The notes under the pieces: model-generated
Database searches by the model: none
Told to the model about the DNA's origin: nothing
What the model saw: the letters and a program-made list of their open reading frames with translations, nothing else
Source of the DNA: a bacterium
Lineage (GTDB): Bacteria; Patescibacteriota; Minisyncoccia; Phycocordibacterales; UBA5272
Reading direction: 5' to 3'
DNA length: 64,000 nt
Assembly: GCA_023267535.1 (NCBI GenBank)
Contig: JAHFNC010000003.1
Span: 75,653 to 139,652 of the forward strand
Program-made: the position numbers and the translations under genes
Shown here: one piece after another, positions 36,672 to 61,298 of the stretch
How positions within the stretch are numbered: position 1 is the stretch's first letter
How the letters are laid out: each line of letters opens with the position of its first letter

Positions 36672-36718
36672 TGACAAAAAGACTTTGATTTCGTCTGTTT
36701 AAGAAGTAAACTAAAACA

Positions 36719-37417: not shown

Positions 37418-37456
37418 GTAATTGGTTAATTAAACTTTTGAGATTATAATATAGCT

Positions 37457-37891
37457 ATGCAATTTAGAGTCCCACAATTTATTGATATTGAAGATAAAAT
37501 ATTTGGGCCTTTCACCTTGAAGCAATTTGCTTACATCATCGGAGCTCTTGGATTTTCTTTTATAATTTGGACATTCATCAGTAATAGACTAATAGCTTTT
37601 ATTCTTATACTTCCAGTGGCCGGACTATTCGTGGCTTTAGCTTTTGTTAAAGTAAATGAACGTCCGTTTGTTGATATGTTAGAAAGTGCATTTAAATATA
37701 TAACTAGCTCAAAAATATATACATGGAAACAACCAACGGTAGCCGAGGGGACTGAAAACAAAAAACCAAACCAAATTGTAACCGAAGCCACCAAGTCAGC
37801 GGTCATAGAAAATGTTAAAGCAAATAGATTACATGAAATTTCTGTCGGGCTTGATATTTTGGATCGTAACGATATCGGAGAAAATAGTTAA
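37457..37891 (+). CDS. PrgI/VirB3-like small two-TM protein
   Basis: 144 aa. N-terminus MQFRVPQFIDIEDKIFGPFTLKQFAYIIGALGFSFIIW followed by a second helix. Similar size and topology to PrgI/TcpE/VirB3 proteins that precede VirB4 in Gram-positive-type T4SS. Confidence 0.45.
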   Translation: MQFRVPQFIDIEDKIFGPFTLKQFAYIIGALGFSFIIWTFISNRLIAFILILPVAGLFVALAFVKVNERPFVDMLESAFKYITSSKIYTWKQPTVAEGTENKKPNQIVTEATKSAVIENVKANRLHEISVGLDILDRNDIGENS

Positions 37892-37954
37892 TTATACTGT
37901 TTTTCTTATCACTATTAACTAGTAACTACAAGCTAGCTTTGTTATACTTTTACT

Positions 37955-38611: not shown

Positions 38612-38612
38612 T

Positions 38613-40427
38613 ATGGGAGCATTCGATTTTTTAAATTCAAAAAAAGATTCACCGATACAGCCAGTTTTACCTGAGCAAGTTTATCAAGTGGCAGAAATGC
38701 AACTGAAAGACATCATCGCGCCATCAGCACTCGGCATTCAACCAAAGATGCTGTCACTCGGGACAAGCGTTCTTCGTTCATACTTTGTAATTTCCTATCC
38801 AAGATTTTTAAATGATGGGTGGCTTAGTCCAATAATAAACTTAGATAAAGTTTTTGATATTTCTTTACAAGTTATTCCTCTTGATACTTCAAAGGTAATG
38901 AAGGATTTTCAAAGAAAGGTGGCTGAGGTAGAAAGTCAAATAATGAATCGTGAAGAGAAGGGGATGGTTCGTGACCCATCACTTGATGTGGCTTACAAAG
39001 ATTTGGAAGATTTGCGTGATGGACTAATACAAGCTCAAGAAAAAATGTTTGATGTTTCTTTATACTTTTCTATTTACGGAGAAAATGAGGACGAAATAAA
39101 TAAAGCAGAAAATGAAATCAGAACAATATTAGAAAGTAGAATGGTTTATGTAAAGCCAGCACTCTTCCAACAAGATGACGCTTTCTTAAGTATTATTCCT
39201 CTACAAACAGATGTTCTTCAAATAAAAAATAAAATGAATACTTCTCCTTTGTCTTCATTTTTTCCATTCGTATCTTTTGATCTATCAAGTGATAGAGGGA
39301 TTCTTTATGGAATAAATCGCCACAATGGAAGTTTGGTTTTGTTTGATAGATTTTCTCTTGAAAACTACAATTCTATAATTTTTGCCAAATCTGGATCTGG
39401 AAAAAGTTATGCTACTAAGCTTGAAATACTAAGGACACTGATGTTTGATACCGAAGTTATTATCATTGACCCAGAAAAAGAATATGAATATCTAGCTGAA
39501 TCCGTAGGTGGAAGGTATTTTGATATTTCTTTAACTAGCGAACACCATATAAATCCTTTCGACCTTCCACATCCAACCGAAGAAGAATCACCGTCTGAAA
39601 TTTTGCGTTCAAATATTGTAAATTTAGTGGGACTATTCCGTGTAATGCTTGGAGGCCTCACTCCAGAAGAAGATGCCATCATTGATCAAGCGTTATCTGA
39701 AACTTACGCCCTAAAAGATATCTCAGGCGACACTGATTTTACAAATATGGAACCACCGCTATTATCAGATTTTGAAACAGTGCTAGCTGGAATTGATGGC
39801 TCAGAAGATTTGCAACAAAAACTTTCAAAATATACCAAAGGAACTTGGGCTGGATTCATTAATCAACCTTCAAATGTTGATATCAACAAAAAATTAGTTT
39901 GTTTTTCTATTCGTGATATGGAAGATGAGCTAAAAGCAGTAGCAATGTATATCATTACTCACTATATATGGAATGCTATTAGAAAAAATATTAAGAGAAG
40001 ATTACTCGTAGTGGATGAGGCCTGGATTATGATGAAAAATGACGACACGGCCTCATTCTTATTTGGTTTAGCAAAAAGAGGACGAAAATATTATTTGGGA
40101 TTGGCAACTATTACTCAAGATGTGGGAGACTTCCTCAAATCTCCATACGGATTACCGATTATTACTAACTCTTCTATTCAAGTGTTACTTAAACAGTCGC
40201 CATCGTCCATTGACCAAATACAGCAAATATTTAGTTTAACCGATGAAGAAAAATTTTTACTGTTGGAATCAAATGTTGGGGAGGGTATATTCTTTGCTGG
40301 ATTAAAACACGTAGCCATAAAAATAGTGGCCTCTTACACGGAGGACCAAATCATCACCAGTGACCCATCTCAATTACTTAAGATAAAAGAGATGAAGGAA
40401 GAAATAAAAGAGGCAAAAACCGTATGA
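38613..40427 (+). CDS. VirB4/TrbE/TraC-family type IV secretion ATPase (CagE_TrbE_VirB plus ATPase domains)
   Basis: 604 aa. N-terminal region YFVISYPRFLNDGWLSPIIN, Walker A IFAKSGSGKSYATK, Walker B LLVVDEAWIMM and the C-terminal GLATITQD motif. Confidence 0.75.
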   Translation: MGAFDFLNSKKDSPIQPVLPEQVYQVAEMQLKDIIAPSALGIQPKMLSLGTSVLRSYFVISYPRFLNDGWLSPIINLDKVFDISLQVIPLDTSKVMKDFQRKVAEVESQIMNREEKGMVRDPSLDVAYKDLEDLRDGLIQAQEKMFDVSLYFSIYGENEDEINKAENEIRTILESRMVYVKPALFQQDDAFLSIIPLQTDVLQIKNKMNTSPLSSFFPFVSFDLSSDRGILYGINRHNGSLVLFDRFSLENYNSIIFAKSGSGKSYATKLEILRTLMFDTEVIIIDPEKEYEYLAESVGGRYFDISLTSEHHINPFDLPHPTEEESPSEILRSNIVNLVGLFRVMLGGLTPEEDAIIDQALSETYALKDISGDTDFTNMEPPLLSDFETVLAGIDGSEDLQQKLSKYTKGTWAGFINQPSNVDINKKLVCFSIRDMEDELKAVAMYIITHYIWNAIRKNIKRRLLVVDEAWIMMKNDDTASFLFGLAKRGRKYYLGLATITQDVGDFLKSPYGLPIITNSSIQVLLKQSPSSIDQIQQIFSLTDEEKFLLLESNVGEGIFFAGLKHVAIKIVASYTEDQIITSDPSQLLKIKEMKEEIKEAKTV

Positions 40428-41638
40428 TGAAGAAAATTCTTAATTTTTTTATTAACGACGTAGAGCGAGAGCAGTGGAAAAGTAATCTTTTTATCTTCCG
40501 AGTCGAGGTGAGAAGCGACCAAAGAAGCTTCGCAAGATTCGGAGGCAGGCGTGCCGAGAATGGGGTCGGCAAAAATTTTTTGCTAAAAATTATTTGTGAC
40601 TTAAAAAGAATTGCAATACCGCGGAGTCTGCTCTCTATTTGTACAAGCAAATCGAGTTCTATTAAACACCTCGTCAACTTGCTGCGAATATCCTTTATTT
40701 TATTTATTATTTTAACTCCTGTAACTCACGCCGAATTTACAGGCACTATTAATATAGATCCACCAAACCCAAGCACTTATCAAGCGGTAACTGCTACTCT
40801 ACAAAGTTTTAGTTTTAATGTTGATAATTCTCTTATTACTTGGTATCTAGATAATAAACTTATTGTTTCAGAAATTGGTAAAAAACAAATTTCTTTGACA
40901 ACAAAAGGAATAGGGCAAACAACCACAATAAAAGTACAAGCTAAAATGGCAGATGGAAATGTTTTTGAAGCCTCAATGACACTTGCTCCTCAGTCAGTTG
41001 ATTTATCTTGGGAGGCTACCGAAGGATATGTTCCACCTTTTTATGAAGGTAAGGCTATGCCGGGGGAATCATCTCAGATAAAGGTGGTGGCTGTTCCCTC
41101 TTTTTCTTCAAGTGGAAAACCGATAGCTCCGGAGAATCTTTCTTATGAGTGGTTTGTAGATGATGGAAAATTAGAAGATCAGTCAGGGCGCGGGAAAAAC
41201 GTAGCTTTTTTAAATCTTGATTACTTATCAAATGATAATGTCATCAGAGTTGATGTAACCTCTGACGATGGTTCAACTGCTGAAAACACAGTGACGATAT
41301 CTCCTTATAAACTTGATCCAATATTTTATTTTAATGACCCAATACTTGGTCCCGACTTTAGTAAAGCCATTGAAGACAGATTTGAAACCACAAAAGAGTT
41401 TTCACTGGCTCTTGTTCCTTATGGTTTGTCATCCTCTAATAACATTAAAGATTACTCTTCTTTTTCTTGGTCGCTGGATGGATTACCTATTGATACTCCA
41501 GCTGATAATGTTTTATCATTAAGACCAACAGATAATAGCTATGGATCGAAATCATTATCGGTTAATATAGAAAACACAAAAAGAATGTTACAGAAGGGAG
41601 TTGCATCTTTGCAAATAGTGTTTGATACTAGAAACTAA
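40424..41638 (+). CDS. hypothetical secreted/anchored beta-rich protein (start uncertain; alternative TTG near 40679 gives a clean signal peptide)
   Basis: The ATGA overlap with the virB4 stop suggests translational coupling. The first ~85 codons overlie repeat family B. The hydrophobic segment LLRISFILFIILTPVTHA is followed by a ~300 aa soluble domain. Confidence 0.45.
   Translation: MMKKILNFFINDVEREQWKSNLFIFRVEVRSDQRSFARFGGRRAENGVGKNFLLKIICDLKRIAIPRSLLSICTSKSSSIKHLVNLLRISFILFIILTPVTHAEFTGTINIDPPNPSTYQAVTATLQSFSFNVDNSLITWYLDNKLIVSEIGKKQISLTTKGIGQTTTIKVQAKMADGNVFEASMTLAPQSVDLSWEATEGYVPPFYEGKAMPGESSQIKVVAVPSFSSSGKPIAPENLSYEWFVDDGKLEDQSGRGKNVAFLNLDYLSNDNVIRVDVTSDDGSTAENTVTISPYKLDPIFYFNDPILGPDFSKAIEDRFETTKEFSLALVPYGLSSSNNIKDYSSFSWSLDGLPIDTPADNVLSLRPTDNSYGSKSLSVNIENTKRMLQKGVASLQIVFDTRN
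40449..40696. repeat. repeat family B, long copy (short copy at 48238-48303), carrying a ~190-nt insert that includes family-A-like words (GAAGCGACCAAAG, GCTTCGC)
   Basis: TTATTAACGACGTAGAGCGAGAGCAG ... CTCGTCAACTTGCTGCGA matches TTATTAACGATGTAAAGCGAGAGAAG ... CTCGTCAGCTTGCTGTGA at 48238. Confidence 0.45.
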
Positions 41639-42566
41639 TATGGCTACATACCAATTACTTGAACCATCATTACCAGCAACCGTTGGAACTGGCGCCAACC
41701 TATCTTTTAACACAGCGGGTGTTAATTCTGTCTCTGGTGCTTTTTCATTATTATTCAGTATTGGAATTATTGCTTGCTTAATAGCTTCAGGTGGAGTTTT
41801 TTTATTTTCCGGATTTCTTAGACTAACAGCTACGGGGCCGGGGGATGTTGGTAAATCAAACGAAGGATTAAAGAGGGCGTCATATGGACTAATTGGAGTT
41901 CTATTAATGTATTTAATATTAAATGAAATAAATCCAAATTTATTAAAAGACGGAATAGTGTTGCCAGCAATAACTGGCTTCGGTGGAACAGTTCAAACAA
42001 ATCCGGCAAATACAAATAGTGGTGGTGTTAGTGCTAAAAATCTCCAACTATATCAAGAAATGGCAATTACTGAGAATGGCGTCCGAAATGCATTAAGTGG
42101 TGTTGGCATTCAAATTAATAGACCAAATGCCTGTGTGACAAATGGAACTAATGGTCCTCAAACAGTTGCTTCCGGTTGCACTAGTGTCGGAGGAATGAGT
42201 GGTAGTATGGTAAATGACTTAATTTTGTTAAATGCTCAGTGTAAGACCTTTATGAAAACAGATTGTCATATAGTAATAACAGGGGGGACAGAGTGGTGGT
42301 TACATGGTGGAGGAGTGGTTGATGTTGATACAAATAAATCATTACATAAACCTGCCTCTGCTGGAGGACATGCGGTAGATTTTAGTATGGGAGCCAATAA
42401 AACTACTGACCCTTTATATTTATTTGTAACTACAAATAGAGCAAACTTTACACCCCTTCCTTCAGACAACTGTTGTTCTTCTAAATATCAGTACGGACGT
42501 GGTTATATTTTTTGTGATGAACTCCCAAGCTGTGGTGGCACTGGCGCACACTGGCATGTTCAGTAA
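41622..42566 (+). CDS. membrane protein with pilin-like double-TM N-terminus and C-terminal putative Zn-peptidase-like (M23/LytM-like) domain. Candidate T4SS cell-wall hydrolase
   Basis: The N-terminus has two hydrophobic helices (LLFSIGIIACLIASGGVFLF; YGLIGVLLMYLILN) like VirB2/TrbC pilins. The C-terminus has GGHAVDF and the terminal CGGTGAHWHV, which resembles the M23 GxTGxHLHFE motif seen in the LysM-M23 gene of this window. Confidence 0.35.
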   Translation: MILETNMATYQLLEPSLPATVGTGANLSFNTAGVNSVSGAFSLLFSIGIIACLIASGGVFLFSGFLRLTATGPGDVGKSNEGLKRASYGLIGVLLMYLILNEINPNLLKDGIVLPAITGFGGTVQTNPANTNSGGVSAKNLQLYQEMAITENGVRNALSGVGIQINRPNACVTNGTNGPQTVASGCTSVGGMSGSMVNDLILLNAQCKTFMKTDCHIVITGGTEWWLHGGGVVDVDTNKSLHKPASAGGHAVDFSMGANKTTDPLYLFVTTNRANFTPLPSDNCCSSKYQYGRGYIFCDELPSCGGTGAHWHVQ

Positions 42567-42598
42567 ATATTAATATTGTATTGTATAATTAATTAATA

Positions 42599-43900
42599 AT
42601 GAATCGTCGGCTTTTTATAATTTTATTTGCGGTTGCCTCTATAATAGGAGTATCTATTATAGTTTGGTACTTCTTTTTCAAGACAAATACCGGTAGCTTA
42701 CTTTTTGGAACACCAACCAATCCGTTTGGTAAAACTCCACCATCACTTCGTGGTTCAGAATTTGTTAATGGAAATAACGGTTACGGTACAAGCTCTCAAA
42801 CAGAAAGAACTCTCGGCGCTGACAGAACGTTAGTAAAAGTTTGGGATAGACCCACTGCTGGATTTTCTTTTATAGAAAAAGAATTTATAACAACTTCTAC
42901 AACAACTGATAAACAAGGGAAGGTGATAACTGTTCAGAAAAAAGCGACTTCAACGGAAATGCTTTTCGCCGACAGAACTACTGGTTATATTTATGACTAC
43001 GATATAAAAAATCAGAATATATATCAAATAACTAATACTCTAACTGCCGGAATATATGATATTTATTTTTTCAATAATGGAAAGTCAGCCATTATCCGCT
43101 ATTTAAGCGATGATAAAAAAACAATCATCTCTAATCTAGTTCAAATACCAACAGTCTCAGCAAGCAGTTCTCCACAAGAAATAAAAACAAATGTTTATTT
43201 ACCAAATAATATTATTTCTATCACTCCAAATTATAATTCCACTGAACTTTCTTATTTAGTAAAAACAAGTAGTGGTAGTAATTTATATACCCTAACAACT
43301 AAAGGTTCTAAACTAATAAAATCTTTTCAGTTATCAGAATTAAATGTTCTGTATGATAAAAATAATTTGTATGTTTATAACAAGCCTTCAATTTATGCTC
43401 TCGGATTTTTGTATGATGTTAAAAATAATGAAAATATATTAAGTAAAACTGTGGCCTTATCTCCGCTTGTCTCGCACAACGGTCAAAATGTTATGGGAAG
43501 TTTTTGGTCAGAGTCTAGTTCTAATAATTTTATGTTTAATAAAAGTACCGCTTCAATGAGAAGTCTCTCTATTTACACCCCAGAGGAAAAATGTGTCTGG
43601 AATAACAAAGATACTTTTGTATTATGTGGAGTAACTCCGGTTATTTTCAACAAAAAAGAAGGACTTCCTGATGATTGGTATAAGGGGCGAGTTTCTTTTG
43701 ATGATAGTATTTATATGATTGATAATGTTGGCAAAAGAGAATACGACTTCTTTGATTTTACAGCTGAGACAAGTGACAAAATAGATTTAACTAAACCAAA
43801 GATATCAAACAATGATGAACTTCTGGGATTTATAAATAAGAAGGATGGTTCGTTCTGGATGTTTAAAGTGAAGAAAACTTTAGATAATGTTTACGATTAA
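42599..43900 (+). CDS. hypothetical membrane-anchored extracytoplasmic protein (last gene of T4SS-like locus)
   Basis: 433 aa. N-terminal TM (LFIILFAVASIIGVSIIVWYFFF), beta-rich ectodomain. Confidence 0.5.
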   Translation: MNRRLFIILFAVASIIGVSIIVWYFFFKTNTGSLLFGTPTNPFGKTPPSLRGSEFVNGNNGYGTSSQTERTLGADRTLVKVWDRPTAGFSFIEKEFITTSTTTDKQGKVITVQKKATSTEMLFADRTTGYIYDYDIKNQNIYQITNTLTAGIYDIYFFNNGKSAIIRYLSDDKKTIISNLVQIPTVSASSSPQEIKTNVYLPNNIISITPNYNSTELSYLVKTSSGSNLYTLTTKGSKLIKSFQLSELNVLYDKNNLYVYNKPSIYALGFLYDVKNNENILSKTVALSPLVSHNGQNVMGSFWSESSSNNFMFNKSTASMRSLSIYTPEEKCVWNNKDTFVLCGVTPVIFNKKEGLPDDWYKGRVSFDDSIYMIDNVGKREYDFFDFTAETSDKIDLTKPKISNNDELLGFINKKDGSFWMFKVKKTLDNVYD

Positions 43901-44617
43901 TTAAGCTCTGTTTAAATTTTTAATATGACTCTTAATATAAACATCTTGTAAGAAAGTAATAATATTATTTGTTACCCAATAAAGTCCTAAAGCAGCTGGA
44001 AGTGCTGTCGCTGATAATCCAACAACTACAGGTAACACATAAAGTAATTGTATTCTCATTGATTTCATAAAATGATCTTGGAAGGATTCATCTCCTCCCT
44101 TCTTGGCGCTCATTGATTGAGTTTGTCTTCTAGCTAAGAAAAAAGATGAGAGTCCAGTTATAATTCCAATGACTAGACTTCTTTTAGTAACATCCAGTAG
44201 ACCAAAAGCCTCCGTGTGTAATACGGCAGGAAAGGTTACAAAATTATAAATTGAGTTAGGGTCATTAAACATTCCTTTAGAAAAAACGAAGTACAGAGCA
44301 AAAAATATTGGGATTTGAATAATCATTACAAATAATGATGATAATGGATTAATTTTTTCTCTCTTGTAAACTTCCATTATTTTAAGGGACAATTCTTGTT
44401 GATTGTGTTTATGATTTTCCTTTAGAACTTTTATTTCTTCATCTAATGCCTTCATTAAATACTGGCTCTTTGTTGCTCTTAGGTTTAAAGGAAGTAGTAC
44501 GAGCTTCACAACCACTGTAACCATAATAATAGAGGCCCCAATGTCGTGCAGGGGAATTATATTTAAAAATATAACTAGCAGATTATATATTGGTTTGTAG
44601 AAAATAAGATGAAACAT
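43901..44617 (-). CDS. yidC: membrane protein insertase YidC (short Oxa1-like form)
   Basis: 238 aa, five TM segments and a charged C-terminal tail. Sits in the conserved rpmH-rnpA-yidC arrangement. Confidence 0.8.
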   Translation of the reverse strand: MFHLIFYKPIYNLLVIFLNIIPLHDIGASIIMVTVVVKLVLLPLNLRATKSQYLMKALDEEIKVLKENHKHNQQELSLKIMEVYKREKINPLSSLFVMIIQIPIFFALYFVFSKGMFNDPNSIYNFVTFPAVLHTEAFGLLDVTKRSLVIGIITGLSSFFLARRQTQSMSAKKGGDESFQDHFMKSMRIQLLYVLPVVVGLSATALPAALGLYWVTNNIITFLQDVYIKSHIKNLNRA

Positions 44618-44618
44618 A

Positions 44619-44933
44619 TTATAAAATATTTTTTAACTCACTATTCAGATTATCATATTTGGTGTATAAAACCTCTCTTTTTGGATAAATTATATAGAAA
44701 TTCGGTTTAAGTTCATTTTTATGTTCCATAAACAAATTATAGATTTTCCTCTTCATTTTATTTCTGTCTACCGCTCTTTTAGCCGTTTTTTTGGAAACCA
44801 CACAAGAAACCTTAAAAGAAGGTAACCCTTCTTTTTCAATAATAGAAATATCAAAAAAAGACCCTCTTATAATCTTTTTTTTAGATATTAAAGAGAAATC
44901 CTTCTTAGAAAGCCGATTTTTCTTTGGTGGCAT
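44619..44933 (-). CDS. rnpA: ribonuclease P protein component
   Basis: 104 aa. Basic N-terminus MPPKKNRLSKKDF and the RNR-like motif (AKRAVDRNKMKRKI). Confidence 0.8.
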   Translation of the reverse strand: MPPKKNRLSKKDFSLISKKKIIRGSFFDISIIEKEGLPSFKVSCVVSKKTAKRAVDRNKMKRKIYNLFMEHKNELKPNFYIIYPKREVLYTKYDNLNSELKNIL

Positions 44934-44936
44934 AGA

Positions 44937-45071
44937 TTATACCGATAATTTCTTTCTTCCTCTACTTCTTCTATTAGCAATTATCTTTTTTCCAGATTTA
45001 GTTGACATACGAACTAAAAATCCGTGTGTTGTTCCTCTCTTTTTTCTTTTAGGTTGATATGTTTGTGACAT
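44937..45071 (-). CDS. rpmH: 50S ribosomal protein L34
   Basis: Minus-strand translation gives MSQTYQPKRKKRGTTHGFLVRMSTKSGKKIIANRRSRGRKKLSV (44 aa). Not in the ORF track because it is under 60 aa. The plus-strand ORF 44791-45057 is its antisense. Confidence 0.85.
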   Translation of the reverse strand: MSQTYQPKRKKRGTTHGFLVRMSTKSGKKIIANRRSRGRKKLSV

Positions 45072-45201
45072 AAACGATATTCTATATCATAAAGACATAT
45101 AAATCAACTTCTGTTTTTTATGTGTCTTTAAGTAATTTAACCCTATTACTACTTAAATGTCTCATGTCTAGTTGAAGAGTTTTGGGGGAGGAGTATACTA
45201 G

Positions 45202-46545
45202 ATGACTATGGATTACCAACAACTTTGGAGTACAGCTTTATCTCAGATAGAAATTGAATTATCTAGGGTCAATTTTAATACTTGGTTCAAAAATACAAAA
45301 ATAATTGACTATAAAGAGGGAGAGGTGGTGATTGGCGTTCCGAATGAATTTGTTAAAGATTGGTTAAATCAAAAATATCATAAATTTATTTTAAGAATAC
45401 TTAGAACAGTTTATGACGGCGTCCGATCAATAAGCTTTTCTGTTGTTAAATTAGAAACACTTAATAAAAAAGTTCAGAACATCACTATCCCCGGACAAAC
45501 TCTTCCACTTAATGATTTATATATTAATAAAGACGACGGATTAAATCCAAGATACACCTTTGATAATTTTATTGTTGGATCTTTCAACGATGTAGCGTTT
45601 GCCGCTTCACAAGCAATAATAAATAATTTAGGCATTCTTTATAATCCATTATTTATTTATGGAAACACTGGGCTTGGAAAAACTCACTTGATACAAGCGG
45701 TTGGAAATACTGTTAAGAAAAAATATCCAGATAGAAAAATTTTTTATACATCTCTTGAAAAGTTTTATATGGATTATGTTAATGCTACTAATTTAAATAA
45801 AATAAATAGTTTCAAAGAAAAGTATAGAAAATATGATGTTTTTATAATGGATGACATACAATTCATAAATGGAAAAGAGAGAACTCAAGATGAATTATTC
45901 CATTTATTTAATTCATTATATGAGATGAATAAACAAATAATCTTTTCGTCAGATAAACATCCTAATTTTATTATTGGTTTGGAAGATAGATTAAGATCTC
46001 GTTTTAATCAAGGAATGATAATTGATGTTAATATTCCTTCTTTTGAATCTCGTTTTGCTATTTTAAAATCAAAAACAAAAGATTTCTCAGATAAGATTAC
46101 AGATGAGGTTTTGGAATATGTTGCTGAAAATGTTCAAGGAAATATTCGTGAGCTTGAGGGTGTTACAAATTCTTTAATTGCTAGTATTCAATTAAAACAA
46201 CAAGTTTTGTCATTACAAGAAATAAAAACTCTTCTAAAGAATAATATTAAAATAAAGAAAAATGTTTCTGTTCCTGAGATAGTTAAAATAATTTCTGATT
46301 ATTATAATATTCCCGATTCTTATGTTTATAATAAAACTAGAAGAAAAGATGTTGTTAAGCCTCGTCAAATAGTAATGTATATCTTGCGAGAAGATTTTGA
46401 TATTTCTTATCCAGTAATTGGAGATAGATTAGGGGGGAGAGATCACACCACCGTTATTCACTCTTATGAAAAAATAAAAGAATGTCTTAAAAAAGACCCT
46501 CATCTAAATAAGGAGATTGAGGATATTAGAGCAATTCTTTCATAA
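45202..46545 (+). CDS. dnaA: chromosomal replication initiator protein DnaA
   Basis: Walker A GNTGLGKTHL, sensor motifs and the C-terminal DNA-binding signature VIGDRLGGRDHTTVIHSYEKI. Confidence 0.92.
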   Translation: MTMDYQQLWSTALSQIEIELSRVNFNTWFKNTKIIDYKEGEVVIGVPNEFVKDWLNQKYHKFILRILRTVYDGVRSISFSVVKLETLNKKVQNITIPGQTLPLNDLYINKDDGLNPRYTFDNFIVGSFNDVAFAASQAIINNLGILYNPLFIYGNTGLGKTHLIQAVGNTVKKKYPDRKIFYTSLEKFYMDYVNATNLNKINSFKEKYRKYDVFIMDDIQFINGKERTQDELFHLFNSLYEMNKQIIFSSDKHPNFIIGLEDRLRSRFNQGMIIDVNIPSFESRFAILKSKTKDFSDKITDEVLEYVAENVQGNIRELEGVTNSLIASIQLKQQVLSLQEIKTLLKNNIKIKKNVSVPEIVKIISDYYNIPDSYVYNKTRRKDVVKPRQIVMYILREDFDISYPVIGDRLGGRDHTTVIHSYEKIKECLKKDPHLNKEIEDIRAILS

Positions 46546-46869
46546 TTAAAAGCACTAAAAATAAAATTTAGTGCTTTTAATTTGTTTTACATATGTGAAT
46601 TACTTGTTAAGAACTATGTTGATAAGTTTAAATATAGCTGTTAATAATCCTAGATTAGTTTAGTGGTAATTTTTAAAGTCTGTATTTTTGTACACAAACC
46701 TAATTAAACTTTTAGTTATTAAATAAAATGGTTTCTAAATAAAACCTTATATAGTAAAGACTTTTTAGCTATCAACACTATTAACACTCTTATCATTATT
46801 ATCATATTTTATATATAGTAATAAGAGAAAAATGTGAGGATAAAAGATTTGTAGTATAATTTATGAACT
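46546..46869. other. candidate oriC (AT-rich dnaA-dnaN spacer with degenerate DnaA-box-like 9-mers)
   Basis: 324 bp, AT-rich by eye. TGTGAATTA (46594), TTATCAACA on the complement (46617-46626), TATCAACAC (46770) and TGTGAGGATAA (46833). An AT-run (TCATATTTTATATATAGTAATAAG) could act as the unwinding element. Sits in the conserved rpmH-dnaA-dnaN context. Confidence 0.5.
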
Positions 46870-47961
46870 ATGAGATTTGAATGTAAGGGAGAAAACTTTT
46901 CTAATGTAATCCAGCAAGTGTCAAGAGCTAGAAGTAAAACCCAATCCCAAAACTACCTACAAGATGTGTTTCTAAATTTAGAAGATCACATCTTAACCTT
47001 GAGAGCTACTAATTTAGAAATTACCTGCGAAAAAAGTTTTTCCGTCAAAGGTATACAAAACGGTAGTTGTATTTTAAAAGGAGACACTTTGGTAAAAATA
47101 ATTCCATTACTTAAGAGGGAGAACACTGTTTTCTTTTGTGAATTAATCGATGGGGTTTTTTCTATTAAAACCGAAAAAGATATTGTTGAAATAAAAACAA
47201 CACCTTATGAAGACTTCCCAACATTACCACCACAAGGGGAATTAATTGGGAGTATTTCAATATTATCTTTATCAACTCTTTTAAGAGAAGTTTCTTTTTG
47301 TTCAGCTACTACAGAAATTAAACCAGAGATATCATCAATCTTTATATATTCAAAAGAAAAAGATTTGATTTCAGTAGCAACCGACTCATATAGATTGGCG
47401 GAAAAGGTTGTTAATAATGAAAATAATTTAAATATTTCGGTTTTAATACCACAGAAATACGTAGTTGATATTTTAAGTATTCTAAATGATGAAGAAGGTG
47501 AGATTTCTATATACAAAAAAGATGGGTTATTAACATTATCAAACAGTAATTTAAATCTTTGTATTCATATAATTACAGGAAACTTTCCAGATTACAGACA
47601 ATTATTTCCAAAAGAATTTTCAACAACTTGTTTGATTGATAAAGAAGAGTTACAGAAATCATTAACATTAACAACTTATTTCACAGAACAATATTCTCAA
47701 GTCAAATGTATTGTGAATGACAACAACGTTACCTTAAGTAGTAAAAATGAAAATATTGGTCAGGTTATTAATACAATCAAAACTGAAAAAGAGGGTGCTG
47801 ATATAGAAGTTAATTATAATAATAAATATTTCCTAGATGTCTTTTCTCATATAAACGGAAATAAAATAAAATTATCTTTTACTACAGCTAATAAACCAGT
47901 ATTTATGGAAGGCAATAATGATATTAGTTTTACATATCTTTTAATGCCCCTTAACAGATAA
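46870..47961 (+). CDS. dnaN: DNA polymerase III beta sliding clamp
   Basis: 363 aa, three-domain length. MRFECKGENFSNVIQQV start and its position right after dnaA. Confidence 0.85.
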   Translation: MRFECKGENFSNVIQQVSRARSKTQSQNYLQDVFLNLEDHILTLRATNLEITCEKSFSVKGIQNGSCILKGDTLVKIIPLLKRENTVFFCELIDGVFSIKTEKDIVEIKTTPYEDFPTLPPQGELIGSISILSLSTLLREVSFCSATTEIKPEISSIFIYSKEKDLISVATDSYRLAEKVVNNENNLNISVLIPQKYVVDILSILNDEEGEISIYKKDGLLTLSNSNLNLCIHIITGNFPDYRQLFPKEFSTTCLIDKEELQKSLTLTTYFTEQYSQVKCIVNDNNVTLSSKNENIGQVINTIKTEKEGADIEVNYNNKYFLDVFSHINGNKIKLSFTTANKPVFMEGNNDISFTYLLMPLNR

Positions 47962-55637: not shown

Positions 55638-56750
55638 ATGAAAAAAATGGCGTCGTTTACGTTTCTACTTTTTCTTTGGCCTCTTCTTGTAAGTGTGAAT
55701 GCTTATGGGGATGAGGGAATTCCAATCAGAACTCCTAGAGAGCTACCAAGTTCCTTGTCTAGTTATCAGACTTCAGGGACTTCCGGCTTTGACGGACTAT
55801 TTAGTAAGATTTTCGAGGCACGAAAGTTCCTCCTTAATTTTTCCAGAGAAAGAAGTTTTAGTGAGGAAAGATTGAATGTAGCGGTGTTAGATATCAATCA
55901 TCAAGACACCGCCAAAATATTAAGTATTAACCACTCTGGGAAAATAAGTTCCAAATACACCGAGTCTGGCACTTTTGTCGTTGATTGGGGAAATACCAAA
56001 TGCGGTGTTCCTCAAGTGATATCAAAACCTCCGGGATTCGTTGTTCTTGCTCTTCATCGCATGAGGTCAGATGGTTCAAGCACGACAGTTTACACTCCGT
56101 ACTCAAAATATATTGATACTCCGGAAATACGCAATGCTGGGTATCAGTATATAAGGCAAAACATTTTGTCGGCCGAACAAGAATTAAGAGATAGGGGTGT
56201 AGAGTCTCTTGCTTACCCAGGAAGATTAGTCGCAGACGTTGCACCACTTTCTCTTGCTTTACGACTTGCTTTGATTGAGCACATGGATCCGAACAGGTTT
56301 ACAAGAGAGTCAACTGAGAAATTGGTCAACGAAATCTTGGTTACCTCTGGCGTGAACATGTCTGACTCTTTCGGTTGTTCCGTTTCTTACGCTGGAGCTC
56401 GCGGACTGTTTCAGTTTATGGAGGGAACTTATTCAACAATTAGAAGGAAGTATGTTTCTGCTAATCTGATGCCTGACTTTCATGGTGGTATGAACAATCA
56501 CCACAATGCATCTAAGGCGGCGCTTTTGTTATTGGACACTGACTTAGCTTTCTTGCCTGAGGAAAAGAAAAGGTGGATGGTGAATAATCCAGAGCATCTT
56601 TTTGAATACTTGGCAGCGATGTATAACAGTGGAAGGCCGGCTAAACTCATATCTTTACATGGGGATAGTTGGCGAGAGCATCTTCCTGCCGAAACAAAAA
56701 AGTACCTTTTGGAATTAAGAGGAATAAACAGAGTTTTGTCCTCGATGTGA
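55638..56750 (+). CDS. secreted lytic-transglycosylase-like (SLT domain) protein
   Basis: Signal peptide (MKKMASFTFLLFLWPLLVSVNAYG). C-terminal RESTEK...YAGARGLFQFMEGTYSTI matches the SLT catalytic Glu and the GLMQ.M..T motif. Confidence 0.5.
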   Translation: MKKMASFTFLLFLWPLLVSVNAYGDEGIPIRTPRELPSSLSSYQTSGTSGFDGLFSKIFEARKFLLNFSRERSFSEERLNVAVLDINHQDTAKILSINHSGKISSKYTESGTFVVDWGNTKCGVPQVISKPPGFVVLALHRMRSDGSSTTVYTPYSKYIDTPEIRNAGYQYIRQNILSAEQELRDRGVESLAYPGRLVADVAPLSLALRLALIEHMDPNRFTRESTEKLVNEILVTSGVNMSDSFGCSVSYAGARGLFQFMEGTYSTIRRKYVSANLMPDFHGGMNNHHNASKAALLLLDTDLAFLPEEKKRWMVNNPEHLFEYLAAMYNSGRPAKLISLHGDSWREHLPAETKKYLLELRGINRVLSSM

Positions 56751-56859: not shown

Positions 56860-56929
56860 ATTAAGTAGCTTTACAGGGTTGAATTTAGCTCTGTTTTCAC
56901 AGGTTCTTTCACAAATTGGAGGTTCTAAA

Positions 56930-57706
56930 ATGAATAAAATTTTCTATGGGATGTTGTTTTTCGTGGCGACGCTACTGACAGGTCTTCCGCAGGCGAACGC
57001 GCAATGTGTGCCGGCCCCGATAATAATGGGGCAGGGATATCAGGGCGGAAACCCGTGCTATGGTGGCCCGCCGGTCCAGACTTTTTCCATGCCATTCAAC
57101 TATGGCCAGAACGGAAACGGATTTGGCAATTTGCTGAACGGTATTCCACAGGGTCAGCCGTTTATGGTTAACACCGCAAACGGTGGCAAAGCCCGTTGTA
57201 CGTGGAAGGATGCGGCGGCAAGTGCGGCGAAGGACGGATTGGTTGGTGGTCTGATTGGTGCCGGTCTTGGAATTCTTCAAGGCAAGGGACACACCTCGCA
57301 GTATGCAAAAGGTGGAGCCCTCATCGGTGCTGCAGTTGGCGCCACGCTTGATTGTGACACCGACATTCTCGGCAACGGGGGTGTGAATCAAATCACGTCG
57401 GTGTCGGTCATCCCGCAACAACAAGCTTCACAGCAAGGTCGTTGTGGAGAGGGGAAGGTTTTCGCTACACTCAACTGGGAAGGTCATCCGCAGAACGGCA
57501 GAATGGTCTGCATGGCCAAGGACGACGTCCATATGCTCCCCATAGAGCAACAGCCGAAGGTGGCCAAGATGGTCTTCCGTTGCAAGGAAGGTCAGATTCG
57601 CGCCAAGTTGAACTGGGAAGGTCATCCGCAACACAACAAGGACGTTTGCATGTCACCGGACGATCCGCACCGTGGATACGAGGCTGCGTTTGTACCTCCA
57701 GCGTGA
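56930..57706 (+). CDS. secreted glycine-zipper protein with duplicated LNWEGHPQ..VCM..DD.H C-terminal module; GC-rich, foreign codon usage
   Basis: Start at ATG 56930 (MNKIFYGMLFFVATLLTGLPQANAQ signal peptide) with a GGAGG SD, preferred over the ORF-track start at 56879. Glycine-zipper segment GLVGGLIGAGLGILQG...GGALIGAAVGATLD. Third codon positions are dominated by G/C (AAG, CTG, CCG, GCG), unlike the rest of the window. Confidence 0.55.
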   Translation: MNKIFYGMLFFVATLLTGLPQANAQCVPAPIIMGQGYQGGNPCYGGPPVQTFSMPFNYGQNGNGFGNLLNGIPQGQPFMVNTANGGKARCTWKDAAASAAKDGLVGGLIGAGLGILQGKGHTSQYAKGGALIGAAVGATLDCDTDILGNGGVNQITSVSVIPQQQASQQGRCGEGKVFATLNWEGHPQNGRMVCMAKDDVHMLPIEQQPKVAKMVFRCKEGQIRAKLNWEGHPQHNKDVCMSPDDPHRGYEAAFVPPA

Positions 57707-57749
57707 ACAAGTAAACAACAAGAAGAAGTTTTTTACAATTTTTTTTTAC

Positions 57750-57790
57750 AAAAGCCCATACGAAAGTATGGGCTTGACTTTTTATATTTC
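57750..57790 (+). terminator. rho-independent terminator
   Basis: AAAAGCCCATACGAAAGTATGGGCTTGACTTTTTAT. Confidence 0.65.
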
Positions 57791-57882
57791 AGTGATAGTA
57801 TCACGGTTAGGCGATATTTGAGATTTTAATTAGTCATTAATTTCAAATGTCATTCTGAACTTTTACAAAAGGAGAAAAAATT

Positions 57883-58716
57883 ATGCCATCCAGCATACCC
57901 GAAAATAAGAGAAGTGTGAATGCTTTGTTCGTTGCCATCGTTGCTGTCATTCTTGCCTTACTTGCTTTGTTTTTCTTGTACAACATAAACGGCAAGGTCG
58001 GCACGGCAAACGATGACCATGTTGTCTTGGAGCAAATGAAAAAAGAAAACTTGGAGATGAAAGCCTCCTTGGTTGCTATCGATGGAAGAATCAAAACTTC
58101 CGACGCCGGCATGTTGACCAAGGTTACCGCACTCGAAAAGATGTTTACCGACTTCAGGTCCTCAACCATGACGGCTCTCGTCAAGTACGAGGAGAGAATC
58201 CTCAAGCTTGAAAAGAACGTCGGTAGCCTCCAGTCAAGGGTTCGTGCTCTGGAACATCAGTTGAGCGAACTTCAGAATCAGAGGCAACAACAGGTAATTG
58301 TGTCGCCACCGCAACAGCCGAGGCAACAGCAGTACGCACCTGCGCCGATTTATCAACAAGCTCCGACGCCGGCACCGACACCAGGACCGTACGCACCACA
58401 AGTAATTCAGCAGCAAACACAGCCGGCTCCGTCACAGGGTGGTTCAGCCTACTTGTGGCATCCGCGTGACGCCACTCCGCATAGTCCTAAGCCGTGTATC
58501 ATTTCAGGTGGCGACGGACAAGGCCTTCCGCCTTATTGTTCAGGAGCATCCGTGCAACCCGCTCTACAAGGAGAACCGAAAGGTGCGTGGATGATACGAG
58601 TTGGTGGTGGTGGAAGATTCCAAGATACCGGCGTCTATCACAAGGACAACTCTCAGACACCGCAAGGTCCACAACCTCAGGAAGAAAAGAAGGGCTGGTG
58701 GCCGTTTAGCAAGTAA
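57883..58716 (+). CDS. membrane-anchored coiled-coil protein with Pro/Gln-rich linker; GC-rich, foreign codon usage
   Basis: SD AAAGGAGAAAAAATTATG. N-terminal TM (VNALFVAIVAVILALLALFFLY), coiled coil, PQQPRQQQYAPAPIYQQAPTPAPTPGPYAPQ linker and a C-terminal Cys-containing domain ending GWWPFSK. G/C-rich third positions. Confidence 0.55.
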   Translation: MPSSIPENKRSVNALFVAIVAVILALLALFFLYNINGKVGTANDDHVVLEQMKKENLEMKASLVAIDGRIKTSDAGMLTKVTALEKMFTDFRSSTMTALVKYEERILKLEKNVGSLQSRVRALEHQLSELQNQRQQQVIVSPPQQPRQQQYAPAPIYQQAPTPAPTPGPYAPQVIQQQTQPAPSQGGSAYLWHPRDATPHSPKPCIISGGDGQGLPPYCSGASVQPALQGEPKGAWMIRVGGGGRFQDTGVYHKDNSQTPQGPQPQEEKKGWWPFSK

Positions 58717-58770
58717 TTTCCTTTGAACTTTTGACTCTTGTCAGCGATGGCAGGGGTCTTTTTTTTGACC

Positions 58771-58799
58771 TTGACATAATCAAGATTATAAGATACAAT
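58771..58799 (+). promoter_or_regulatory. sigma-70-like promoter TTGACA-17-TACAAT for the repeat-protein gene
   Basis: TTGACATAATCAAGATTATAAGATACAAT lies 48 bp upstream of the ATG at 58847. Confidence 0.45.
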
Positions 58800-58846: not shown

Positions 58847-61246
58847 ATGAAAAATTTAATAAAAAACTCAGTAATATTGGTTTCGGTAGTAATTGCAACC
58901 GCTAATTGTGGGCTTGTTTTTGCGCAGTACGATTATGGTTACGATACTGGAACTAGTTACAGTACATATGACACTGGTTCTACTTACGGTAACTATAATA
59001 CTGGTACTACATACGGAACATACGATACAGGAACTACTTATAATACTTACAACACAGGTACAACATATCCAACATACGACACTGGTTCCACCTATGGAAC
59101 ATATAATTATAATACCGGCACCACATACCCAACCTACGATACAGGGACCACTTACTCTACTTACCAAACTGGAACAACATATCCAACATATGATACTGGC
59201 ACCACATACGGAACATATGACACTGGTACAACTTATCCAACCTACAATACAGGAACTACATACTCTTCATACGACACAGGCACAACATACCCAACCTATG
59301 ACACTGGTACTACATACGGAACATATGATACGGGAACAACTTACCCAACTTACGATACAGGAACAACATACTCTTCATACGACACAGGCACTACCTACCC
59401 AACATATGATACAGGTACTACTTACTCTAATTATGATACGGGAACTACCTATCCTACATACGACACAGGAACAGCTTACCCAATTTATGATACAGGGGTT
59501 TATCCTATATACGACACAGGCTATACACCTTACTCTACTCCGTATTCACCAGTAACTTACGGAAACAATTCTACTTATAATCCTTTTAATTATAATAATT
59601 CAAACAATGGTTATTCTAATTACAACGGTTCTTCTAATTATGGTTATGTAAACTATATTAACGTTAATGATGGACATATAAGTTGTTCTGTTGGTACAGC
59701 CCTTGTGAGTGGTTCATGTGTCATAATTCCGACCACGTGTCCAGCTGGAACAACCATGATTAATGGAACATGTCAGATTAATAATATCGTCTGTCCAACC
59801 GGAACCAATCTAGTTAATGGTTCTTGCCAACCGATAGTTATAAATACATGTCCAACTGGAACTACCATGGTAAATGGAGTTTGTCAGCCAATCGTTGTGA
59901 ATAATTGTCCTACTGGAACCACATTAGTAAACGGAGTTTGCCAACCGATAGTTATAAATACATGTCCAACTGGAACTACCATGGTAAATGGAGTTTGTCA
60001 GCCAATCGTTATAAACCATTGTCCTACAGGAACAGTTCTTATTGATGGTTCTTGTGTTCAAAATAATTACGGTTATTACACTCCATCAACTTATAATTAT
60101 CCATCGATATATACACCTCCTGTAATATCTAATTATCCAACCTACGGAAACAACTATTCAAGTCCAATGATGAATTACCAAACTTGTTTTGACGGTTCTA
60201 TTATTCCTCTTGGTCAGTCATGTTATTACGGAAATAATTTTGCACCTGTTCGTCCTCAAACTATTAAGTTTAATAACGTTGTTACCTCTATCGCTACACA
60301 AATAACAAATAACAGCGCTCGTTGTAATGGTATTGGATTAATTGCCAATGGGGTTAATTCAACTGGCTGGTTTGAATACGGAGAGACTCCAAAGCTTGGT
60401 CGCGAAACATCTCATTCTTCTATTGGAAACTATGCAACCTCACCTTTCTCTAACGTATTGTCTAATCTAAAGACTGGAAATACTTATTACTGTCGTGCGG
60501 TTATGAACAATCAATACGGAACATTCAAGGGAGAGATTGTTAGCTTCAAGGCAAAGGTAGCAAAGACTGTTTATGTTAAACCAGTGGCTACTGTAAAAAA
60601 GACTACTACAAAGAAAGTAAGTAATGTCATTACATGTTCAGATGGTTCTACTATAACCGTTAAAAGTGACAAGACAGCTACTGTTCTAAATGAAGGAGGA
60701 AAGTTAATTGCACTTACTGTTGAAAAAGAAGATGGAAACATTTCTCCAAACCAAGAGGTGAATTACAAGTTAAGCTATAAAAATAGTTCTGATACTAAGG
60801 TTTACGATGTTGCTGTAAACATTGCTGTTCCTCCTGAGTTTGAGATTCTAAGTGTCAGTGCTGGAACCTTTGATAACAATACTCACACTATTTCATTAAA
60901 CCAAGCTTCAATACCAGCTTCTTCCGAGAGTGCTATTACTTGGAGAGTAAAGGTAAGCAAGGACGCTATGATTGGAAAGTCTATTGTTACAACTGGATAC
61001 ATTGCTTACACAATCTCAGATGAAAATGGTAAGACTGTTCAAGATGAAGTAACCGCTTACTCAACAGCTTCAATCTCACCCGTATCAGACACTGCAAACT
61101 CTGATACTGGATCAAAGAATGTTGTTGGAGAAGGTTATGGATTCCTACCAAGTACTTTGGTTGAATGGTTCGCACTGGTGGCTATTATATGTATAATCTT
61201 TATTTTAGGTAGAAACATATATGTGTCATATAAGAATGAACAATAA
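58847..61246 (+). CDS. large cell-surface repeat protein (signal peptide, ~22 YDTGTTYxT nonapeptide repeats, ~6 Cys-containing 18-19 aa repeats, beta-rich region, C-terminal TM anchor)
   Basis: 799 aa ORF. MKNLIKNSVILVSVVIATANCG signal, [Y(D/N)TGTTY(P/G/S)T]n, [CPTGTTMVNGVCQPIVIN]n, C-terminal LVEWFALVAIICIIFILG anchor. Followed by a strong terminator. Confidence 0.7.
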   Translation: MKNLIKNSVILVSVVIATANCGLVFAQYDYGYDTGTSYSTYDTGSTYGNYNTGTTYGTYDTGTTYNTYNTGTTYPTYDTGSTYGTYNYNTGTTYPTYDTGTTYSTYQTGTTYPTYDTGTTYGTYDTGTTYPTYNTGTTYSSYDTGTTYPTYDTGTTYGTYDTGTTYPTYDTGTTYSSYDTGTTYPTYDTGTTYSNYDTGTTYPTYDTGTAYPIYDTGVYPIYDTGYTPYSTPYSPVTYGNNSTYNPFNYNNSNNGYSNYNGSSNYGYVNYINVNDGHISCSVGTALVSGSCVIIPTTCPAGTTMINGTCQINNIVCPTGTNLVNGSCQPIVINTCPTGTTMVNGVCQPIVVNNCPTGTTLVNGVCQPIVINTCPTGTTMVNGVCQPIVINHCPTGTVLIDGSCVQNNYGYYTPSTYNYPSIYTPPVISNYPTYGNNYSSPMMNYQTCFDGSIIPLGQSCYYGNNFAPVRPQTIKFNNVVTSIATQITNNSARCNGIGLIANGVNSTGWFEYGETPKLGRETSHSSIGNYATSPFSNVLSNLKTGNTYYCRAVMNNQYGTFKGEIVSFKAKVAKTVYVKPVATVKKTTTKKVSNVITCSDGSTITVKSDKTATVLNEGGKLIALTVEKEDGNISPNQEVNYKLSYKNSSDTKVYDVAVNIAVPPEFEILSVSAGTFDNNTHTISLNQASIPASSESAITWRVKVSKDAMIGKSIVTTGYIAYTISDENGKTVQDEVTAYSTASISPVSDTANSDTGSKNVVGEGYGFLPSTLVEWFALVAIICIIFILGRNIYVSYKNEQ
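58925..59545 (+). repeat. in-frame 27-bp tandem repeat array (~22 copies) inside the surface-protein gene
   Basis: Recurrent ACATACGACACTGGTACTACATACCCA-type units with synonymous and near-synonymous variation. Confidence 0.8.
59690..60060 (+). repeat. in-frame 54/57-bp tandem repeat array (~6 copies), including two identical ~70-bp stretches (59827-59896 and 59941-60010)
   Basis: CCAACCGATAGTTATAAATACATGTCCAACTGGAACTACCATGGTAAATGGAGTTTGTCAGCCAATCGTT occurs twice, verbatim, 114 bp apart. Confidence 0.8.
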
Positions 61247-61262
61247 TATACTGTTTTAATGG

Positions 61263-61298
61263 AAAAGGGCGTGCCGCAGGCACGCCCTTTTCGTTTGT
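61263..61298 (+). terminator. rho-independent terminator
   Basis: AAAAGGGCGTGCCGCAGGCACGCCCTTTTCGTTTG. Confidence 0.75.

Follow-up and report, generated by a model that had tools for sequence, protein, structure and literature searches.

The stretch of DNA considered here is a window of 64,000 nucleotides (64 kb; contig JAHFNC010000003.1, positions 75,653 to 139,652), a segment of a Patescibacteria chromosome with low GC content (about 34%), whose genes include dnaA, dnaN, PBP1A, tyrS, ruvCB, pilB, tsaE, and polA. The subject of this analysis is a complete open reading frame (ORF) on the plus strand, positions 58847-61246 of the window, which starts with ATG and codes for a surface protein of 799 amino acids plus stop. 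An exact match of this protein (P0001) is present in both NCBI and ENA, and the window holds no paralogue of it. The gene appears to be a stand-alone transcription unit with promoter-like and terminator-like signals of its own, and the terminator of the upstream gene lies ahead of these signals (Table 1).

The protein begins with a Sec signal peptide and ends with a C-terminal transmembrane (TM) anchor. Between the two lie a long Thr/Tyr-rich array of nonapeptides (tier 1), an array of Cys-bracketed units (tier 2), an additional Cys hairpin, and two β-sandwich domains separated by a Lys/Thr-rich linker. The full-length AlphaFold2 model, from which the predicted local distance difference test (pLDDT) values in Table 1 are taken, was built on an 84-sequence family alignment. 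In this alignment, residue A26 of the signal peptide and the Cys columns of the eighth hairpin are each at least 90% conserved.

Table 1. Features of the surface-protein gene and its flanks (window coordinates) with the corresponding segments of the AlphaFold2 model (protein residues)
Feature	Position	Strand	Sequence features	AlphaFold2 model
Terminator of upstream gene	58733-58758		Separates the upstream gene's transcription unit from the surface-protein gene	
Promoter, near-consensus sigma-70-type	58771-58799	+	TTGACA, 17 nt, TACAAT; 11/12 matches; 48 bp 5' of ATG	
Sec signal peptide	58847-58924	+	aa 1-26; predicted cleavage between VFA and Q; K-rich n-region, hydrophobic core	Residues 2-18, helix, pLDDT 73-74
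Tier 1	58940-59536	+	22 in-frame units of 27 bp; higher-order period of 108 bp (4 units); scrambled codons	Residues 22-277, no structure, pLDDT about 35
Low-complexity linker	59537-59683	+	Tyr/Asn/Gly/Ser-rich	pLDDT < 50
Tier 2	59684-60055	+	Seven Cys-x10-Cys modules, 54/57 bp each	Residues 284-405, seven β-hairpins, one per Cys unit, pLDDT about 70
73-bp identical tract, copy 1	59824-59896	+	End of unit 3, start of unit 4	
73-bp identical tract, copy 2	59938-60010	+	End of unit 5, start of unit 6; offset 114 bp	
Tyr/Pro-rich linker and eighth conserved Cys hairpin	60056-60223	+	Hairpin CFDGSIIPLGQSC at 60185-60223	Residues 444-454, strands of a small hairpin, pLDDT 71-79
Fn3-like β-sandwich	60263-60556	+	WFEYGET motif; conserved Cys pair C493, C549; invariant columns in the family alignment	Residues 477-568, β-sandwich, pLDDT about 90
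Lys/Thr-rich flexible linker	60557-60625	+		Residues 574-588, low pLDDT (< 50)
CLIPPER/DUF11-type Ig-like β-sandwich	60626-61081	+	Membrane-proximal stalk domain	Residues 594-742, second β-sandwich, pLDDT about 96
Anchor cassette	61142-61243	+	FLPSTLVEW 61142-61168; TM helix 61157-61210; 11-aa basic cytoplasmic tail 61211-61243	Residues 771-797, TM helix, pLDDT 80-84
Intrinsic terminator of surface-protein gene	61262-61292	+	14-bp stem, 9 GC pairs	

The first tier encodes, on in-frame parsing, 22 units of the form Y[D/N/Q]TG[T/S]TY[P/G/S/N]T over 597 bp, in which Tandem Repeats Finder recognizes overlapping arrays with periods of 27, 54, 81, and 108 bp (58943-59520). The distal segment, of about 250 aa, is uncharged to acidic, being composed of 31% T, 23% Y, 13% G, and 7.5% D with no K or R at all, and Pfam and NCBIfam recognize no domain in aa 27-279. 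At the level of DNA, every unit is different; the two most similar agree at 25/27 positions, the mean identity between units is 65-75%, varying with lag, and the longest exact repeat is 26 bp, at an offset of 108 bp. Where two units have the same amino acid, the codon is also the same in only 41% of cases overall. Adjacent units have 36% of their synonymous codons in common, compared with the 40 +/- 4% expected when synonymous codons are shuffled, a difference that is not significant (P about 0.2). The sole remaining lag signal is found at lag 4, where 54% of synonymous codons are common compared with the expected 42.5% (P = 0.002), and successive 108-bp blocks differ by 12-17 synonymous vs 3-5 non-synonymous codon changes. 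The codon scrambling, the lag-4 signal, and the synonymous excess between blocks thus indicate that tier 1 arose long ago through duplication of four-unit blocks, and that it has since been kept by purifying selection on the peptide, with synonymous sites saturated. An avoidance of common codons in adjacent units, which would suggest selection against slippage, was considered and dropped, given the non-significant value in this gene; a strong effect in the closest orthologue, P0003, where adjacent units have only 17% of synonymous codons in common, was discounted as support because a five-unit block is duplicated in that gene and confounds it. It should be noted that two ORFs in other frames, 58893-59555 (plus strand, 220 aa) and 58868-59167 (minus strand, 99 aa), overlap the repeat array; these are by-products of its periodicity, not genes.

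The second tier, of 372 bp, consists of CPxGTxxxNGxC modules, each followed by a linker of 6-7 aa, so that a unit measures 18-19 aa; Tandem Repeats Finder gives periods of 57 and 114 bp at 59792-60033. Units 3-4 and units 5-6 form two 114-bp blocks, which are identical at 100/114 positions. All 14 differences between the blocks fall in the first 32 and the last 9 positions, with a clean core of 73 bp; the probability of a clean run of at least 73 bp arising by chance in such blocks is about 5e-6. A fresh tandem duplication would have produced 114 identical bases. Since the flanks of the core are diverged, the tract reads as gene conversion between older paralogous units, and tier 2 thus carries a single recent gene-conversion-like tract.

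The preliminary description of this locus had reported both in-frame tiers, and both are present, the first being slightly shorter than the length of about 620 bp given there. It had also reported that 59827-59896 and 59941-60010 are identical (70 bp), which is true; the identity reaches 3 bp further left. Of its proposal of recent duplication or recombination, recent recombination holds for tier 2, in the form of the 73-bp tract; tier 1, in which no pair of units is closer than 25/27 and codons are randomized, is not a recent array. Slipped-strand length variation, also proposed there, is in the 27-bp tier contradicted by the maximal exact repeat of 26 bp and by a sharing of adjacent codons (36%) that is no higher than chance (40%). 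The signal peptide and C-terminal TM anchor noted there are recovered both in the sequence and as AlphaFold2 helices.

Structure prediction draws a sharp distinction between the two tiers, tier 1 being disordered and tier 2 forming seven β-hairpins. A separate model of residues 276-468 again yields the chain of hairpins (pLDDT 75-86, predicted template modeling score, pTM, 0.24), and the Cys region accordingly modeled would fit an extended, flexible rod. A Foldseek search of the PDB with this Cys rod gave no significant match; the best E was 0.057, and the weak top matches were likewise elongated hairpin or Cys-rich modules, namely TNFR cysteine-rich domains, the body of reovirus sigma1, and arrays of EGF. 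With the full model as the query, Foldseek retrieved from the PDB only generic tandem Ig/Fn3 pairs (transglutaminase, integrin calf domains, RbmA), and sequence searches of the PDB with the family profile and with the CLIPPER-like domain returned no matches.

The membrane-proximal domain has, on fold comparison, a CnaA-like β-sandwich fold of the immunoglobulin (Ig) type, and its nearest structural relatives are LPXTG pilins. CLIPPER (formerly DUF11, PF01345) is an isopeptide-bond stalk domain of fibrillar adhesins (PDB 9IFR; bioRxiv 10.1101/2025.04.25.650565); the bond, which joins Lys and Asn with the help of a catalytic Asp or Glu, is present in many members of the family, not all. In the window protein, K619, N646, and E734 (window 60701-61048) are invariant in 84 family sequences and may constitute an intramolecular isopeptide triad. 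The protein differs from the Pfam family in having the domain as a single copy and in lying under the Pfam threshold; the three invariant residues are only candidates for the canonical Lys/Asp/Asn triad. The PF01345 model (gathering score 24.6 bits) does not match the window protein at E<=0.1. The corresponding domains of orthologues, which are 45-55% identical to that of the window protein, pass in P0013 (38.0 bits) and P0003 (32.5 bits) and are just below the threshold in P0004, P0005, and P0138.

A similar situation is encountered in the Cys region. The EB module (PF01683) scores 13.7 bits in the window protein, below its cut-off of 24.3, and 28.6-42.6 bits, above the gathering score, in orthologues with more units (P0013, P0005, P0004); the CC domain (PF04942) scores 20.4 bits vs a cut-off of 20.6, with no single stretch passing alone, and it too exceeds its threshold in orthologues. 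NCBIfam models, run against the whole protein and four sub-regions, gave only a sub-threshold TIGR01451 match in the Cys region plus chance matches. The Fn3-like domain is tandemly repeated in relatives, where it matches Pfam fn3 and Pur_ac_phosph_N. In five long relatives (P0126, P0127, P0141, P0160, and P0208; 1608 to 4389 aa), 12 to 41 separate stretches are matched by this domain. The stretches of P0126 carry the WFEYG motif and match Pfam fn3 and Pur_ac_phosph_N, and the giants P0127, P0141, P0160, and P0208 are without the literal WFEYG and end in GCGC...RRRR, MYXO-CTERM-like tails.

Among 5.8 billion proteins searched, more than 100 homologues were identified, encoded in metagenome-assembled genomes labelled Paceibacterota, Parcubacteria, or Nomurabacteria, with 40-56% identity to the window protein over the C-terminal two thirds. 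All have the same order of parts: a signal peptide, low-complexity Tyr/Thr/Ser/Gly repeats, 1-19 CPxGxxxxNGxC units, the domain with the invariant WFEYG motif, a DUF11-type domain, and the anchor cassette. Residues 472-799, scanned with HMMER against 1.84 billion cluster representatives, gave 235 matches at E<1e-30 and 1338 at E<1e-10. Existing database labels of the homologues are "hypothetical", "fibronectin type", and, in one case (NCBI), "EB domain-containing protein"; in the literature, no paper describing this family was found. Surface proteins of a repetitive kind, with a C-terminal anchor and Ig-like stalk domains, are already well known. What distinguishes the present family is the combination of a Thr/Tyr nonapeptide brush, a rod of two-Cys hairpins, and CLIPPER plus a non-LPXTG anchor cassette, together with its fixed site beside pilB and tsaE-polA and its restriction to Paceibacteria-type lineages.

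The chromosomal setting of the family was followed by searching for neighbor genes at 66 loci from GTDB species representatives, 62 of which gave at least one match. The tsaE-polA pair lies directly downstream of the surface-protein gene in 59/62 loci, and pilB, divergently oriented, is found 2-3 kb upstream in every locus that reaches far enough (39). Because this synteny is conserved, the gene is a single-copy positional orthologue rather than a mobile or multicopy antigen gene. In one contig (CAZNZQ010000005.1; loci L033 and L051) the gene and its neighbors occur twice, in opposite orientation and about 21 kb apart, with identical match statistics, probably owing to palindromic mis-assembly.

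In contrast to the order of parts, the repeats themselves differ greatly among orthologues in both type and copy number, a comparison that had been envisaged in the preliminary description. The number of Cys units varies from 1 to 19 and the period of the N-terminal repeats from 5 to 39 residues. Despite this change of period, the N-terminal composition is kept: over 92 family members it amounts to 21% T, 15% Y, 12% S, 11% G, 8.5% N, and 7.7% P, with K+R at 0.3%. The closest orthologue, P0003 (locus L069, 4001-6424; 56% identity), has 18 peptide-perfect Y(D/S)TGTTYPT units, the codons of which are likewise scrambled, and contains a 167-bp exact repeat at an offset of 135 bp. Exact repeats of at least 40 bp are present in about half of the orthologous genes scanned (27/54; 4 of the 27 are runs of N); with N runs set aside, exact repeats of at least 70 bp are present in 11/54, the longest being 308 bp. 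Repeat birth and death through intragenic recombination thus recurs in the family over evolutionary time, and in this form the idea of the preliminary description can be defended. Since unit type and copy number differ widely among orthologues and recent exact duplications are common, the turnover is read as an evolutionary process that acts between lineages; in the present genome, the repeats look old and stable.

The motif of the C-terminal cassette, F[LM]PxxL[VI]EW, is found in 109/120 homologue matches. A generalized form, F[LF]Px[T/S]L[LIV][G/E]W followed by a helix and a basic tail, ends 62/132 distant representatives (P0126-P0257, new in the HMMER scan), which have other N-terminal architectures. 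Other distant relatives end in a tail of the "xNWLF" type or in a GCGC...RRRR (MYXO-CTERM-like) tail. In the window protein, the motif is followed by the hydrophobic segment LVEWFALVAIICIIFILG and then, at the extreme C-terminus, by RNIYVSYKNEQ, which is the layout of a sorting signal. The LPXTG and CTERM models of NCBIfam do not match the C-terminal 53 aa even at E<=10, and neither a sortase (Pfam) nor a TLxTC motif is found in the 64-kb window. No other ORF in about 1 Mb of locus sequence carries the cassette motif. A profile of the C-terminal tail retrieved only five short fragments from 5.8 billion proteins and was uninformative on other substrate families.

In our opinion, the gene encodes a Sec-exported type I protein with its N-terminus outside, a positional orthologue that is probably a fibrillar adhesin- or mucin-like coat protein. 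The concept of the fibrillar adhesin involves stalk domains, a cell anchor, and an adhesive domain (Monzon et al., PMC8286594). Stalk domains and an anchor are found in the window protein in the form of the Fn3-like and CLIPPER-like sandwiches, the hairpin rod, and the TM helix. A distal adhesive domain is not found, aa 27-279 being of low complexity and predicted to be disordered. The CLIPPER/DUF11 and Fn3-like sandwiches, with the Lys/Thr linker, would carry the chain from the membrane through the wall, and the eight Cys-bracketed hairpins would serve as a spacer rod, the reach of which is set by the number of units. This rod is probably stabilized by disulfides, which is plausible because Patescibacteria genomes are enriched in MdbA-like oxidoreductase and VKOR (PMC6744442). 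The distal Thr/Tyr brush would provide either multivalent contact with the surface of a host cell or particle or a hydrated outer coat. The arrays lengthen and shorten through intragenic recombination of multi-unit blocks, of 108 bp in tier 1 and of 114 bp in tier 2.

Several points weigh against this assignment. No recognized adhesive or ligand-binding domain was found with Pfam or NCBIfam, and the window protein is itself below the thresholds of these databases for DUF11/CLIPPER, EB, and CC, these assignments having been made via orthologues and fold comparison. The disorder of the N-terminal region is a prediction made on a weak alignment, and an ordered repeat fold is possible there; disulfide pairing, glycosylation, and surface exposure are predictions too. 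Moreover, the TM helix is extremely conserved (E773, W774, and other residues are invariant), a pattern that suggests an interaction or a processing step beyond plain anchoring. The "variable surface adhesin" of the preliminary description can thus be retained in part: the protein is predicted to be exported and anchored and is built of repeats, but variation is seen only across orthologues, three assemblies of this gene being identical.

In comparison with fibrillar adhesins and with the LPXTG proteins and pilins of Gram-positive bacteria (BcpA, RrgB, EbpB, PrgB), it has LPSTL with an invariant L instead of LPXTG, has a low-complexity Thr/Tyr array at the tip instead of a known adhesive globular domain, and has a stalk made mostly of Cys hairpins, not Ig repeats; the organism, moreover, is a Patescibacterium. 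The CPxGxxxxxGxC hairpin motif of the Cys units recurs in the EB module and the CC domain, both described from nematodes. Unlike EB, which is 52 aa long with eight conserved Cys, and unlike CC, the array considered here is made of regular 18-19-aa units with two Cys each and belongs to a bacterial protein. Eukaryotic transmembrane mucins of the MUC1/MUC17 type are also type I proteins with Thr-rich repeats of variable number, Cys modules, and a short cytoplasmic tail. The analogy is purely functional. There is no sequence kinship, the array of the window protein is Tyr-rich, and its glycosylation is only presumed. BAD-1 of Blastomyces (PMC3708853) is likewise a surface adhesin with tandem loops that run for about 17-19 aa between two bracketing Cys and vary in copy number; it is a fungal protein with a WxxWxxW motif and has no homology to the window protein. 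The Pam pili of Saccharimonadia and Microgenomatia (bioRxiv 10.64898/2026.03.03.709456) were weighed because of their Ig-like folds and set aside as a different system of other classes.

Two other explanations of the locus concern the repeat arrays. One is that of a contingency locus, at which slipped-strand mispairing or frequent recombination shifts the copy number within the population and generates antigenic or length variants. The 73-bp perfect direct repeat at an offset of 114 bp, together with the exact repeats of 83-308 bp in several orthologues, is compatible with such a process, which we nevertheless consider very unlikely here: exact repeats in tier 1, the units of which are 66-78% identical, do not exceed 26 bp, synonymous sites there are randomized, and all units (27, 54, and 57 bp) are in frame, so that ON/OFF switching is impossible. 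The closest orthologue, at 56% identity, has a similar number of units (18 and 7 vs 22 and 7). No phase-variation or programmed-variation machinery is apparent at the locus, judging by the sequence: there is neither a simple-sequence tract nor a homopolymer at the promoter or 5' end, and no inverted repeats bracket the promoter. An invertible promoter and a diversity-generating retroelement were rejected on these grounds, as the window contains no reverse transcriptase and its sole integrase is 36 kb off. Finally, the gene is base-identical in two ENA contigs (from analysis records ERZ27279942 and ERZ27279977), in which identity to the window is complete over 15.2 and 12.1 kb, respectively. 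With zero single-nucleotide differences, the three represent the same population and are silent on differences between strains; separate assemblies do converge on one copy number. The same contigs bear on the other explanation, that the arrays are collapsed or chimeric and the gene as given is an assembly artefact. All underlying data are short-read metagenome assemblies, in which repeats are a generic risk, and the preliminary description had accordingly named the array a likely hotspot of assembly collapse. For this particular sequence the concern is weak. The MEGAHIT-style names of the contigs imply k=141, and de Bruijn collapse is not expected, since exact repeats in the gene reach only 73 bp. 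With an intact frame across both arrays, an architecture that agrees with more than 100 homologues, and the base identity of the ENA contigs over 12-15 kb, an artefact is scarcely credible.

Two further explanations concern what the protein does and how it is held at the surface. It might be a structural coat or S-layer-like protein, that is, an abundant, non-adhesive building block of the envelope, tethered by its C-terminal helix and with a Thr/Tyr region glycosylated as in haloarchaeal S-layer glycoproteins. Those glycoproteins, of the PGF-CTERM type, resemble the window protein in their Thr-rich region, in a short conserved motif, and in a C-terminal TM helix with a basic tail; the motif and fold are different, and archaeosortase processing has no known counterpart for the window protein. 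The C-terminal TM anchor with the Thr-rich region, the stand-alone layout of the gene between its near-consensus promoter and strong terminator, and its fixed chromosomal site as a core gene of the clade would all suit a coat protein, and the structure of the Patescibacteria envelope is acknowledged as unknown (PMC5220378). However, neither SLH nor any other S-layer or lattice domain was found with Pfam and NCBIfam, the models predict disorder for one third of the protein and flexibility for the rod (pTM 0.24-0.40), unlike a lattice former, and the orthologues are strongly variable in length and repeat type. The S-layer-like alternative mentioned in the preliminary description is, for these reasons, unlikely. 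Sorting by a sortase or another transpeptidase, in which FLPx(T/S)L, the helix, and the basic tail act as a tripartite signal, with removal of the helix and either covalent linkage of the protein to peptidoglycan or its polymerization, seems to us a shade more doubtful. The tripartite layout (LPSTL, 17 hydrophobic residues, R) is indeed present, conserved in the family, and maintained in generalized form in 62/132 distant representatives; the adjacent domain has LPXTG pilins as its nearest structural relatives, and sortase genes are present in over half of Patescibacteria (candidate phyla radiation) genomes (PMC6744442). Yet an invariant L takes the place of the G of LPXTG, no LPXTG or CTERM model matches, and conservation of the entire TM helix is not expected of a signal that is discarded. 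The 64-kb window lacks a sortase gene and a TLxTC motif, about 1 Mb of locus sequence lacks another motif-bearing ORF, and sortases are patchy outside Microgenomates (PMC6744442).

A bolder proposal goes beyond the probable assignment as a fibrillar adhesin- or mucin-like coat protein and holds two things jointly: that the cassette F[LF]Px(T/S)L[LIV](E/G)W with its TM helix and basic tail is an undescribed sorting or anchoring signal used lineage-wide, and that YDTGTTYPT is a specific ligand-binding repeat. We regard this pair of claims as unlikely. If it is true, a sortase-like enzyme or a dedicated membrane partner might recognize the cassette, with a possible link to the neighboring type IV pilus genes. 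The peptide, which is kept perfect over long divergence while its codons are fully scrambled, would then be a binding element and not mere filler.

Several other features of the window deserve mention. Just upstream of the surface-protein gene (56879-58716) are two small genes, in a region where the GC content is 43-45% vs about 34% elsewhere. One encodes a secreted, Cys-containing glycine-zipper protein; the product of the second has an N-terminal TM helix, a coiled coil, a Pro/Gln-rich region, and a terminal conserved motif, W.P...P.C...G..PP[YF]CS. Both have positional counterparts at orthologous loci (L010, L022, L026, and L035), and the three genes, the surface-protein gene included, may make up a conserved group of envelope genes next to pilB. 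A secreted protein of 370 aa, encoded at 55638-56750 between these two small genes and pilB, has a lytic-transglycosylase-like "GLFQF...Y" motif and no Pfam match. Farther away, a type IV secretion-like cluster of the Gram-positive type occupies 31360-43900; among its genes are those of a PrgI-family protein (37457-37891) and of a VirB4/CD1110-family ATPase (38613-40427), as well as several large ORFs without family match (32255-34000, 34038-36671, and 40424-43900). The adjoining region, 43901-47961, with yidC on the minus strand, an AT-rich gap (GC 27-29% around 44-48 kb), dnaA (45202), and dnaN (46870), is probably the chromosomal replication origin region. As listed, with a GTG start at 3918, the ORF of a CCA-adding or poly(A) polymerase-family enzyme (3918-5516) runs over a tRNA of the opposite strand (3919-3990); the true start of the ORF is probably further downstream.

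A life attached to other cells is assumed for the ultra-small Patescibacteria, and the molecules of their envelope and attachment are largely unknown (PMC5220378, PMC6744442). Because of its fixed syntenic position, its own strong promoter-like and terminator-like signals, and its clearly modular ectodomain, the surface protein described here is a good candidate for such a molecule, one that is conserved in Paceibacteria-type lineages and belongs to the envelope or serves attachment. Beyond this candidacy, it belongs to a common class of repetitive bacterial surface proteins. For that class the gene holds a more general lesson: an array that is perfect as a peptide can be very stable as DNA through scrambled codons, and repeats in a protein do not by themselves imply hypervariability.

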